DNA of 24,000 bases, taken from an uncultured archaeon. GTDB taxonomy: Archaea; Halobacteriota; Methanosarcinia; Methanosarcinales; Methanoperedenaceae. Positions 15,880 through 17,487 of the stretch are shown piece by piece (position 1 is the stretch's first letter; each line of letters opens with the position of its first letter). The stretch lies in NCBI GenBank assembly GCA_902386255.1, contig CABMII010000138.1, positions 15,660-39,659 of the forward strand, given 5' to 3'. Under the pieces are notes generated by a model, which saw only the letters and a list, made by a program, of their open reading frames with translations, had not been told where the DNA came from and made no database searches. Both the position numbers and the translations under genes were made by a program.

Positions 15880-16292
15880 TGTTTCACCTCTTTATTGAAC
15901 AACAGCCTGTCAGGACCATAAACAAGGCTTTCCCGGGTATAATCTGCAAGTTCGTAATTGCCTGTCATTTTCATGGCATTCATCGGGCAGACATCGACGC
16001 AAATTCCGCAGAACAGGCACATTCCGATATTTACCTGCGGATACCATCTTGTATTATATTTGACTATCCGGATAGTCCCGTTCGGGCAGTTCACTTCACA
16101 TATCCCGCAACCGATGCAGGCATTTTCATCAACTGCATGCAATCCCCTGAATCTCGGTGAGAGTTTCATCCGTTCATAAGGATACTGCACTGTCACTGTG
16201 GGCCTGTTCCCGATGTGTAAAACATGTTTTAACGTGACTATGAGTCCTTTTATTATACCGCTCATCGTCCAGTTCTTGCTTATCCAGGTCAT
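15876..16292 (-). CDS. fpoI: F420H2 dehydrogenase subunit I (2x[4Fe-4S] ferredoxin-type, NuoI)
   Basis: 138 aa with two CxxCxxCxxxCP motifs (CIGCGICEVNCP and CLFCGICVDVCP). Its operon position after H fits. Confidence 0.92.
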   Translation of the reverse strand: MTWISKNWTMSGIIKGLIVTLKHVLHIGNRPTVTVQYPYERMKLSPRFRGLHAVDENACIGCGICEVNCPNGTIRIVKYNTRWYPQVNIGMCLFCGICVDVCPMNAMKMTGNYELADYTRESLVYGPDRLLFNKEVKQ

Positions 16293-16368
16293 AAAGCGAC
16301 ACCTCGCTTTATGCGGTATAGGGTATGCTTCGCATACCCTTCTTTTGATAAAACTTTCTTAAAGTTTT
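16293..16368 (-). repeat. Intercistronic hairpin-array element, short copy (3 hairpins) between fpoH and fpoI
   Basis: Perfect inverted repeats in plus coordinates:
- 16291-16298/16305-16312: ATAAAGCG-ACACCT-CGCTTTAT
- 16320-16328/16332-16340: AGGGTATGC-TTC-GCATACCCT
- 16350-16357/16361-16368: AAAACTTT-CTT-AAAGTTTT

Both ends are near-identical to the ends of the 19138-19402 element. ATGA flanks it on both sides. Confidence 0.85.
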
Positions 16369-17487
16369 TCATCGGAACACCCCTGCGGTAATAAGGAATC
16401 CCGCAAGCAGCAGGTTTAAAAGTGCAAGCGGCACCATTATTTTCCATCCGAGATTTAGAAGCTGGTCAATCCTCACCCTCGGGACGGTATCACGGAGCCA
16501 CATTGCGAAGAATATAACCGCGTAAGTTTTAACCAGGAAAACCCCAAGCGACACTAGCGGAACTAACATTGCAGGGACAAAGGGAAGAATTGGGAATGTC
16601 CATCCTCCGAGGAACAGTGTAACAACGATTCCCGAGACTGCAAATAAATGAGCATATTCTGCAAGGAAGAACATTGCGAATTTCATTCCGCTATATTCTG
16701 TGAAGAACCCTGCCACCAGTTCGGATTCGGATTCCTGGAAGTCAAACGGTATTCGTCCCATTTCAGCAATAGAAGCGATAAGGAACAGGACAAATCCCAG
16801 GGGTTGTAAGAATATGAACCATTTGGGTATTACCCCGAACCATGTCCCGCTCTGTGCATTCACGATATCCACGGTGCTGAGAGAACCGGTAAATAAAACA
16901 ATGGCAATTGCGGCAAGGGCAAGCGGGATAGTATAACTGATATCCTGTGCCACGGCCCTCATTGCTCCCATCAGCGAATACTTGTTATTCGAGGCCCATC
17001 CTGCGAGCAAAATAGCTACGGGTGACACTGCTGAAATTGCAATAATATAGAGCAACCCTACCCGCAGGTCGGATATTATCAGCGACTGGCCGAATGGAAG
17101 GGGGATAAAAACAAGGAGCGCCGGGATAAAAACGATAAAAGGGGCAAGCGTGAATATCCACCTGTCAGCCTTAGCAGGTATAATATCCTCTTTCCCGATG
17201 AGCTTCACACCATCCATGACCGGCTGTAGCAAGCCGCGCGGCCCGGTGACCATGGGCCCGTACCTTGACTGCACCATGGCGACGACTTTTCGTTCCATCC
17301 ATGTAAGGAACATAACGGTGAGAAGCACAAAAACGAACAGAATAGCAATCTCAACCAGTACGATTATGATTTGCAAAACATATTCGATTCCAAGCATCTG
17401 GAATACGTTAAGGATTGGCTCGTAAATCCTGAATAAATTCAATATATATACTATCAATTCGTAAGCGTTTGCTATCATTCCGATCAC
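16369..17487 (-). CDS. fpoH: F420H2 dehydrogenase subunit H (NuoH-type)
   Basis: 372 aa. NuoH signatures: WMERKVVAMVQSRYGP, AQDISYTIPLAL and PFDFQESESELVAGFFTEYSGMKFA. It has an ATGA overlap with the fpoD stop. Confidence 0.92.
   Translation of the reverse strand: MIGMIANAYELIVYILNLFRIYEPILNVFQMLGIEYVLQIIIVLVEIAILFVFVLLTVMFLTWMERKVVAMVQSRYGPMVTGPRGLLQPVMDGVKLIGKEDIIPAKADRWIFTLAPFIVFIPALLVFIPLPFGQSLIISDLRVGLLYIIAISAVSPVAILLAGWASNNKYSLMGAMRAVAQDISYTIPLALAAIAIVLFTGSLSTVDIVNAQSGTWFGVIPKWFIFLQPLGFVLFLIASIAEMGRIPFDFQESESELVAGFFTEYSGMKFAMFFLAEYAHLFAVSGIVVTLFLGGWTFPILPFVPAMLVPLVSLGVFLVKTYAVIFFAMWLRDTVPRVRIDQLLNLGWKIMVPLALLNLLLAGFLITAGVFR

Follow-up and report, generated by a model that had tools for sequence, protein, structure and literature searches.

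A hairpin element on ATGA start codons of Candidatus Methanoperedens genes, probably tolerated because translational coupling is kept

The operon for the F420H2 dehydrogenase (fpo) lies on the minus strand, in the order fpoA-B-C-D-H-I-J-J-K-L-M-N-O, of a 24,000-nucleotide stretch of archaeal DNA (contig CABMII010000138.1, positions 15,660 to 39,659; hereafter the window, whose own numbering is used throughout), and its fpoH/fpoI and fpoB/fpoC junctions are occupied by spacers built of hairpins. The explanation that we favor, with a probability of roughly 0.7, is that both spacers are copies of a non-autonomous hairpin element that is specific for ATGA start sites and is tolerated because translational coupling is kept. 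The repeat family has so far been seen almost only in Methanoperedens. The window is a chromosome segment of Candidatus Methanoperedens (ANME-2d), as its FpoD is 100% identical to a protein of an "uncultured archaeon" contig and shows 79-95% identity to proteins of Candidatus Methanoperedens assemblies.

The two spacers had been read in an original prediction as two forms, one short and one expanded, of a single modular element, sharing both ends and a middle hairpin and bordered by ATGA on each side, and all of this was borne out. At the downstream end, 31 of 31 nucleotides are identical between 16289-16319 and 19134-19164, and the window contains exactly two occurrences of the 25-nt end CATAAAGCGAGGTGTCGCTTTATGA, where chance would give 0.00. 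The upstream end at 16343-16368 matches 19377-19402 and the internal positions 19279-19304 and 19303-19328 at 92% (four matches against 0.01 expected), and the hairpin GGGTATGC-N3-GCATACCC is present at both 16320-16340 and 19256-19276. Both spacers are chains of perfect hairpins and both form complete, in-frame open reading frames (ORFs) on the gene strand. The canonical unit is the 84-nt, three-hairpin copy at fpoH/fpoI (16289..16372, minus strand), for which an identical copy is present in metagenome contig L001; the spacer proper measures 76 nt and not the 77 nt first given. It encodes a 27-aa mini-ORF (16372..16289; MKNFKKVLSKEGYAKHTLYRIKRGVAL) whose ATG at 16372-16370 overlaps the fpoH stop as ATGA and whose TGA at 16291-16289 overlaps the fpoI start, again as ATGA. 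The fpoB/fpoC spacer is an expanded 273-nt array (19134..19406, minus strand) that encodes a 90-aa mini-ORF (19406..19134) with the same ATGA overlaps at the fpoB stop (19406-19403) and the fpoC start (19137-19134). Folded as mRNA-sense (minus-strand) RNA, the short spacer gives three hairpins (z = -5.9) and the long one about nine (z = -7.6).

The three hairpins of the 84-nt unit, all given here on the minus strand, are a first hairpin that forms the 5' end module (16350..16368, AAAACTTT-AAG-AAAGTTTT), a middle hairpin (16320..16340, AGGGTATGC-GAA-GCATACCCT) and a terminal hairpin (16290..16313, CATAAAGCGA-GGTG-TCGCTTTATG). The 3' arm of the terminal hairpin holds the fpoI start codon, with its AUG paired to CAU of the 5' arm. 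In and beside the terminal loop stands GAGGTG (16300..16305, minus strand), 7 nt 5' of the fpoI ATG. This motif can be read as a putative ribosome-binding (Shine-Dalgarno-like) site because the genes of the window carry GGAGG, GAGGTG or GGTGAT 4-9 nt 5' of their starts. The terminal hairpin of the long array (19135..19158, minus strand, with GAGGTG at 19145-19150) is identical to 16290-16313 and holds the fpoC start codon.

Copies of the element are found far beyond the fpo operon. Genomes were scanned with the 3' hairpin, with one genome taken per species, and all family counts that follow come from this sample. Among the matches listed, the 3' end is present in at least 110 stretches from about 20 species, all but one of them Methanoperedens or Methanoperedenaceae; viral contigs scanned with the same end gave 0 matches. 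The exception, L089 (JAHIOG010000464.1, 2178 nt), is labelled "MAG: bacterium" and holds the element in nested form; this contig probably belongs to Methanoperedens and was mis-binned. In the protein database, the 90-aa ORF has 39 modular relatives of 54-144 aa in which modules are shuffled, duplicated or deleted, with MKNFxKVLSK as a common N-terminus and RIKRGVAL as a common C-terminus. The downstream genes fall into 41 families among the matches listed, and many are housekeeping genes; they include those for L14, L19e, argininosuccinate lyase, methionine aminopeptidase, a Pelota/eRF1-like protein, geranylgeranyl reductase, FpoC and FpoI. Neither spacer matched an Rfam family at the gathering threshold, and a permissive threshold returned nothing relevant (the best sub-threshold hit had E = 0.27 and 24.5 bits against a 79-bit cut-off). 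The searched literature contained no described Methanoperedens or fpo elements of this kind. The earlier idea of a mobile element was thus right in substance, with copies at many unrelated loci and with spacers that are not fixed in all relatives. We infer from these patterns that the mobility is an active process.

Presence and absence of the element at exact sites can be followed among close relatives. Both fpo junctions lack a spacer in L002 (FpoD 95% identical), L003 (93%) and L004 (86%). In all three, the empty fpoB/fpoC site reads AAATGAAC, a 4-nt ATGA stop/start overlap, and the empty fpoH/fpoI site reads TTCTGATGGCC, a 1-nt overlap. The fpoB/fpoC site of L028 is filled with a 192-nt version in flanks that are otherwise the same as those of L002 (...ATGA[...]ATGA ACCCGGCAGAGG), and the FpoC of L028 is 97% identical to that of the empty L002. 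Versions of 84, 87 or 192 nt occupy this site in L037, L084, L110, L082 and L028. Filled and empty alleles also exist at rpL14, rpL19e, argininosuccinate lyase and other loci, with host-protein identities of 97-100% in some of the comparisons, and the empty allele begins with ATGA in five further empty/filled pairs. These alleles bear on the proposal that the spacers belong to the fpo operon as an ancient and fixed regulatory leader, which some lineages lost, and were never inserted. Distant species, with FpoC identities to the window of only 73-83%, have a filled fpoB/fpoC site, as such a leader would allow, but the same element precedes 41 unrelated genes among the matches listed, the seamless ATGA empty sites are in the closest relatives and occupancy is not in line with phylogeny. 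We consider an ancient leader the least probable of the explanations weighed here.

The fpoH/fpoI junction has a more complicated history than fpoB/fpoC. Its filled alleles in the window, L001 and L043 read CGATGA...ATGACC, and six empty species have TGATGG or TGATGC. The last sense codon of fpoH is CGA in the window where relatives with an empty site have a TGA stop, and codon 2 of fpoI is ACC in the window and GCC, GCA, GCT or CCC in those relatives. Both flank changes produce -4 overlaps. The filled allele may have originated once, in a variant with ATGACC, and then been passed on by recombination; alternatively, the flanks may have changed after insertion. In the original prediction, an ancestral 4-nt overlap was split by an insertion with a 4-bp duplication. 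Such an ancestral overlap is borne out for fpoB/fpoC with its ATGA empty site and not for fpoH/fpoI, where the ancestor is TGATGG with a 1-nt overlap. Of the three uninterrupted ATGA junctions that it cited in the same operon, 11594-11597 is one, and 17484-17487 and 15876-15879 read GTGA. The duplication itself is ambiguous. ATGA stands on both sides of the element and once in five empty sites, but the 3' ATGA lies within the element's own terminal palindrome, (T)CAT...ATG(A), in which pair 63-88 is U-A in 13 of 26 units, and it may belong to the element. The element, for which a MITE-like nature had been suggested, is also not a classical MITE (miniature inverted-repeat transposable element), since there are no terminal inverted repeats; its 5' end ATGAAAAACTTTAGG is unlike the reverse complement of its 3' end, TCATAAAGCGACACC, and each end has its own hairpin.

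Where the copies sit argues for the start codon as the site. Among the matches listed, GA follows 108 of 119 distinct 3' ends and so completes an ATGA, and about 100 of these 108 open an ORF of at least 80 aa or one that runs off the fetched sequence. The 5' ends were located by Hamming scoring at ATG positions; for copies anchored on this end, the mini-ORF stop is TGA in 69 of 73 and the ATGA overlap at the 3' end is present in 66 of 73. The element stands directly after the host ATGA, is always oriented as the gene and brings an ATGA of its own at the 3' end. Upstream, the picture is mixed: 26 of 75 copies have a -4 overlap with the upstream ORF and 1 has a -1 overlap, 21 begin 0-10 nt past it, 6 begin 11-30 nt and 2 begin 31-90 nt past it, and 19 have no co-directional ORF within 90 nt. 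A match of at least 5 nt to GGAGGTGATC is found just 5' of the mini-ORF ATG in 27 of the 75. The earlier proposal that the element targets gene junctions is therefore half right: copies do lie at ATGA start sites, but because so few have the -4 overlap and so many lack a near upstream ORF, the target is a start codon followed by A rather than a junction.

By a rough estimate, the ATGA sites that are gene starts account for a few percent of the total and should be outnumbered by harmless intergenic ones. In the sample, roughly 85-90% of intact copies are on a gene-start ATGA and intergenic sites that are not starts are hardly used. Selection alone may be insufficient to explain this position. 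In addition, 84-nt units with 0-2 nt differences precede unrelated genes in different species, and such conservation exceeds what would be expected of neutral DNA. The occupancy of ATGA starts, the scarcity of intergenic copies and the near-identity of copies across species suggest, as a tentative possibility, a new class of archaeal mobile element that depends on its hairpins to move and actively seeks out the starts of translation. It would act as a portable cassette that brings along a start codon, a ribosome-binding site and a coupling stop, possibly co-opted to tune translation in core operons, including those for ribosomal proteins and Fpo.

The mini-ORF is preserved as a frame and not as a peptide. 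The length is a multiple of 3 in 70 of 75 complete copies, although it ranges from 84 to 354 nt and takes more than 30 different values. Frame 0 holds 3 stops in 3539 codons, compared with 3.2-7.4 stops per 100 codons in the other five frames. All complete copies are in frame at 26 of 27 sites, and at 12 sites the length varies between species. Where a stem has been lengthened by one base pair (+2), the change is offset in one of two ways, either an additional A close to the start or a loop of 4 nt. These frames have proper start and stop codons and recurrent termini (MKNFxKV and RIKRGVAL), and gene callers annotate the copies as hypothetical proteins, all of which would suit a true protein family, small, basic and repeat-containing (27-140 aa, 21% Lys+Arg), whose short genes are squeezed in between other genes. 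Against it, variable sites show no third-position bias (9, 7 and 6 at codon positions 1, 2 and 3), and the first two hairpins are read in another frame in type B, so that the same nucleotide modules yield the unrelated peptides MKKLYESFIKR and, in type A, MKNFRKVLSK. Modules are also shuffled, duplicated and deleted, conservation tracks stems instead of codons and none of the 39 relatives has a Pfam domain. On the codon-position and frame evidence we rejected a real protein family, which we regard as very improbable. The lack of third-position bias, the use of two frames and the compensated insertions and deletions together indicate that selection keeps the frame open and the stems intact and does not act on a protein. 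Two copies, at plus 6597 in L017 and plus 6073 in L092, are broken off inside the last hairpin (…CCGCATAAAGTGA), and their mini-ORF stop overlaps the GTG start of a 100- or 296-aa ORF; the coupling layout is therefore kept despite loss of the terminal hairpin.

A preserved mini-ORF that ends beside a ribosome-binding-like GAGGTG, which the original prediction did not include, is the feature most likely to explain how the element is tolerated. In the mechanism that we favor, the original start signals of the host gene, either a ribosome-binding site or an upstream stop, would launch the mini-ORF through all of its hairpins. The ribosome would melt these hairpins and would stop at the TGA that overlaps the ATG of the displaced gene by 4 nt. 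The loop of the last hairpin would usually offer GAGGTG just upstream of the displaced ATG, and once the ribosome had opened the hairpin that hides the AUG, the downstream gene would be re-initiated by termination-reinitiation coupling with the aid of this motif. Termination-reinitiation at -4 overlaps has been documented in archaea (Huber et al. 2019, 2023, as cited in PMC12548453). Untranslated RNA, moreover, invites FttA-dependent polarity in archaea (PMC12548453), which provides a reason to keep a 270-nt spacer translated. Continuous translation, together with the scarcity of T-runs on the sense strand, would avoid polarity and termination within operons, making the element a stealth insertion that essential operons could tolerate.

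The hairpins themselves are strongly conserved. Across 26 basic units, 96.7% of pair cells are paired, compared with 39-57% when the partner is slid, and compensatory changes are found at five pairs; helix 1, the first hairpin, is paired at 100% in all 26 units, with compensatory changes at two pairs. Perfect stems of at least 6 bp hold 65% of the bases of all copies. The two strands differ sharply: the sense strand has 1 T-run of at least 5 nt and the antisense strand has 103. Oligo-T tracts are termination sites for the archaeal RNA polymerase, and the strict co-orientation of element and gene fits this asymmetry because the opposite orientation would end the transcript. A terminator on the sense strand was considered for the two spacers and rejected, as none of their sense-strand hairpins is followed by a T-run.

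Perfect-hairpin arrays with compensatory changes also raise the possibility of a REP/BIME-like structural repeat that is selected at the RNA or DNA level, with the open frame as a side condition. Roles of this kind might include mRNA stabilization or processing, the setting of subunit ratios, an antisense block, or a binding site for a protein or cruciform. The copies within operons for multi-subunit complexes (Fpo and the ribosome), the terminator-like hairpins followed by T-runs on the antisense strand and the 84-nt units that differ by 0-2 nt before unrelated genes in different species, suggestive of sequence constraint or homogenization, are all on the side of this explanation. Close relatives nevertheless do without the element at the same junctions, where it is then not required, and array length ranges from 84 to 354 nt at single sites. 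Stem mismatches show no G:U excess that would point to RNA-level selection (3 G:U against 6 A:C, too few to decide), and a structural role alone leaves both the strict ATG...TGA frame and the start-codon position unexplained. We judge a structural repeat of this sort to be unlikely.

The arrays give some indication of how palindromes are kept up and how copies grow. Loops of inner hairpins occur in both orientations on otherwise identical stems (GAA/TTC, AAA/TTT and TGC/GCA), and these loop pairs fit the hairpin flipping that is expected from DNA-level template switching or inversion in palindromes. The two loop orientations and the lack of a G:U excess suggest that DNA-level processes, template switching for example, account at least in part for the upkeep of the palindromes. 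Each array is pieced together from different hairpin modules, 24-57 nt in size, with stems that begin with AAAACTTT, (A/C)(G/A)GGTATGC, CACGTATGGC or CATAAAGCGA. The long array in the window, again on the minus strand, starts with a first hairpin at 19385..19401 (AAACTTT-AGG-AAAGTTT), followed by two internal 5'-type hairpins at 19286..19328, AAAACTTT-AGG-AAAGTTTT and AAACCTTT-AAG-AAAGGTTT, which differ by one compensatory pair. Further internal hairpins lie at 19256-19276 (GGGGTATGC-TGC-GCATACCCC), 19228-19245 (AAGCCGAA-GT-TTCGGCTT), 19200-19218 (AAGTATGC-AAA-GCATACTT) and 19165..19194 (CCACGTAAACCG-GGGTAT-CGGTTTACGCGG), the last of which has 71% identity to the terminal hairpin. Two elements are joined head to tail via a shared ATGA in L053 and L035, and the internal module GAGGTGTCGCT-AAACTTTTAGAAAAGTTT resembles such a junction minus TTATGA and one base, plus one loop base, a net in-frame change. 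At the other extreme, M. nitroreducens has a 42-nt minimal copy before rpL14 that consists only of the two ends. Long arrays would thus grow as new copies insert again and again at the ATGA that the element itself carries, probably giving tandem or nested copies that later fuse in frame and lose modules. A subfamily with the variant terminal hairpin CATAAAGGG-GCGTAA-CCCTTTATGA, which includes a compensatory stem change, is present in L002 (minus ~2380-2465), L006, L028 and L040; L002 carries this copy though its fpo junctions are empty.

Several observations weigh against a mobile, start-specific element that is tolerated through coupling. Translation of the mini-ORF and its coupling to the next gene are read from sequence patterns, and the hairpins may be maintained at the DNA level rather than for an RNA function. 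The GAGGTG loop formed part of the search pattern, and a variant terminal hairpin, CATAAAGGG-GCGTAA-CCCTTTATG, lacks the motif. The family counts include orthologous copies and rest on the at least 110 listed stretches. At fpoH/fpoI, insertion into the known empty sequence fails to yield the filled allele, and the filled alleles are not in step with the tree of the flanking DNA, in which L043 groups with the empty L003 at 95% identity; this mismatch suggests that lineages exchanged alleles by recombination or that additional steps took place. The element's two ends do not form an inverted pair, and the analysis turned up neither an autonomous copy nor a long element between the two end types. 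No transposase or other mobilizing gene was found in ~800 kb of flanking DNA around 118 loci, and a candidate enzyme with matching ends, which the original prediction had advised looking for, did not appear there. The same DNA contained no multi-copy family of ORFs of at least 180 aa, as the ORF clusters are orthologous host genes only.

By function, the closest known system is the MIRU (mycobacterial interspersed repetitive unit). Like the hairpin element, a MIRU is a short dispersed repeat inside operons, oriented with the genes, whose small ORF overlaps the flanking stop and start at -4 spacing; filled and empty sites, tetranucleotide border repeats and a unit number that varies per locus are common to both, as is a proposed insertion at a start codon with little effect on expression. 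An ORF overlapping the flanking stop and start, gene orientation, and filled and empty sites were all found for the hairpin element. MIRUs reportedly repeat one 40-100-bp unit directly and in tandem, with no marked dyad symmetry. A tandem 40-100-bp unit in Mycobacterium, which would place a repeat in the MIRU family, is not what we have here: the host is archaeal, and the hairpin element combines different perfect hairpins into a mosaic framed by end modules that are fixed and differ between 5' and 3', with a last loop that usually has a ribosome-binding-like motif. The bacterial and archaeal families are set apart here by description, not by sequence comparison. The accounts of MIRU in PMC12548453 and PMC3184786, which summarize Supply et al. 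1997, describe start-codon insertion and a coupled ORF at -4 spacing, and the latter account also mentions imperfect terminal and internal inverted repeats (PMC3184786).

Other repeat families share the architecture of the hairpin element more than its position. PATEs (palindrome-associated transposable elements) of haloarchaea are IS200/IS605-derived miniature elements. Derivatives of IS200/IS605 have no terminal inverted repeats and have a hairpin at each end, as does the hairpin element, and our data are compatible with an insertion of that type, next to a fixed 4-nt motif and with no real duplication; seamless excision would fit the clean empty sites. However, the hairpins of IS200/IS605 derivatives lie 10-20 nt inside the border, whereas those of the hairpin element abut or include the border tetranucleotide and yielded no definable guide or cleavage-site pairing, and the start-codon position and preserved frame belong to the hairpin element and not to the IS200/IS605-derived family. 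A TnpA or TnpB partner was not found among ORFs of at least 180 aa in the ~800 kb around the 118 loci. REP/BIME repeats of enterobacteria and pseudomonads likewise form clusters of short palindromes with linkers between operon cistrons, with hairpin orientation that can vary, and a single-strand, hairpin-recognizing (HUH/Y1) enzyme would by analogy be a plausible mobilizer. REPs differ in being extragenic and untranslated, linked to RAYT genes and marked by GTAG or CGTC tags (PMC3733652); no such tag stands at the stem starts of the hairpin element, whose copies lie inside an open frame. BOX of Streptococcus pneumoniae (boxA-boxB(n)-boxC) is similar in its distinct conserved end modules and variable internal number, its strong predicted secondary structure, its non-autonomous nature and its location near genes (PMC3184786), but is bacterial and has no tie to start codons or to a preserved reading frame. 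Rickettsia RPEs are palindromic repeats that survive in coding sequence by staying in frame (PMC3184786); unlike the hairpin element, they insert within genes and become part of the protein. Neisseria REP2 also differs, as it carries a promoter and fuses to the gene instead of providing a coupled mini-ORF.

If the favored explanation of a coupled, start-specific insertion is correct, archaea and mycobacteria would have independently reached the same way for selfish DNA to inhabit essential operons, which is to sit on a start codon, stay translatable and pass the ribosome on via a 4-nt stop/start overlap. The 84-nt unit would then be a natural cassette for studies of archaeal termination-reinitiation coupling, and the element could be used to study how ribosomes unwind structured RNA and how translation protects from transcription polarity. 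The arrays could also serve as length-variable markers for typing Methanoperedens strains, comparable to MIRU-VNTR for tuberculosis.

The genes around the two spacers, all on the minus strand, are fpoH (16369..17478, NADH dehydrogenase subunit 1-type), fpoI (15876..16292, a 4Fe-4S subunit, with its start codon within the terminal hairpin of the 84-nt element), fpoC (18634..19137, with its start codon within the long array's terminal hairpin) and fpoB (19403..20017, with its stop overlapping the ATG of the 90-aa mini-ORF). The start of fpoH is probably the ATG at 17478, which is 6 nt past the fpoD stop, as in the gene calls of relatives, and has GGTGAT upstream. Seven stretches (L041, L047, L051, L061, L089, L094 and L107) hold a hairpin array without the ATG and ATGA borders. 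These arrays are nested in another repeat, which has inverted ends (left GAACACAGATGACACGGATT..., right ...ATCCGTGCAATCCGTGTTCT) and carries ACGGAT repeats inside; an example is the minus strand of L047, in the ~230 nt before and 60 nt after the 3' end. The nesting repeat is a second, MITE-like family that carries, or has been invaded by, the hairpin array. The contig of the L007 copy ends 33 nt past the element, and the copies in L027, L058, L064, L083 and L085 are at the ends of fetched stretches; the repeats probably break short-read assemblies. Elsewhere in the window, three tandem repeats of 78-81 nt (8261-8497, 68-79% identity to the first copy) lie inside a 718-aa ORF (7570-9726, minus strand) that looks like a repeat-containing protein, and a 21-nt tandem pair, 90% identical, is present at 6554-6595, at the start of ORF 6435-7565.

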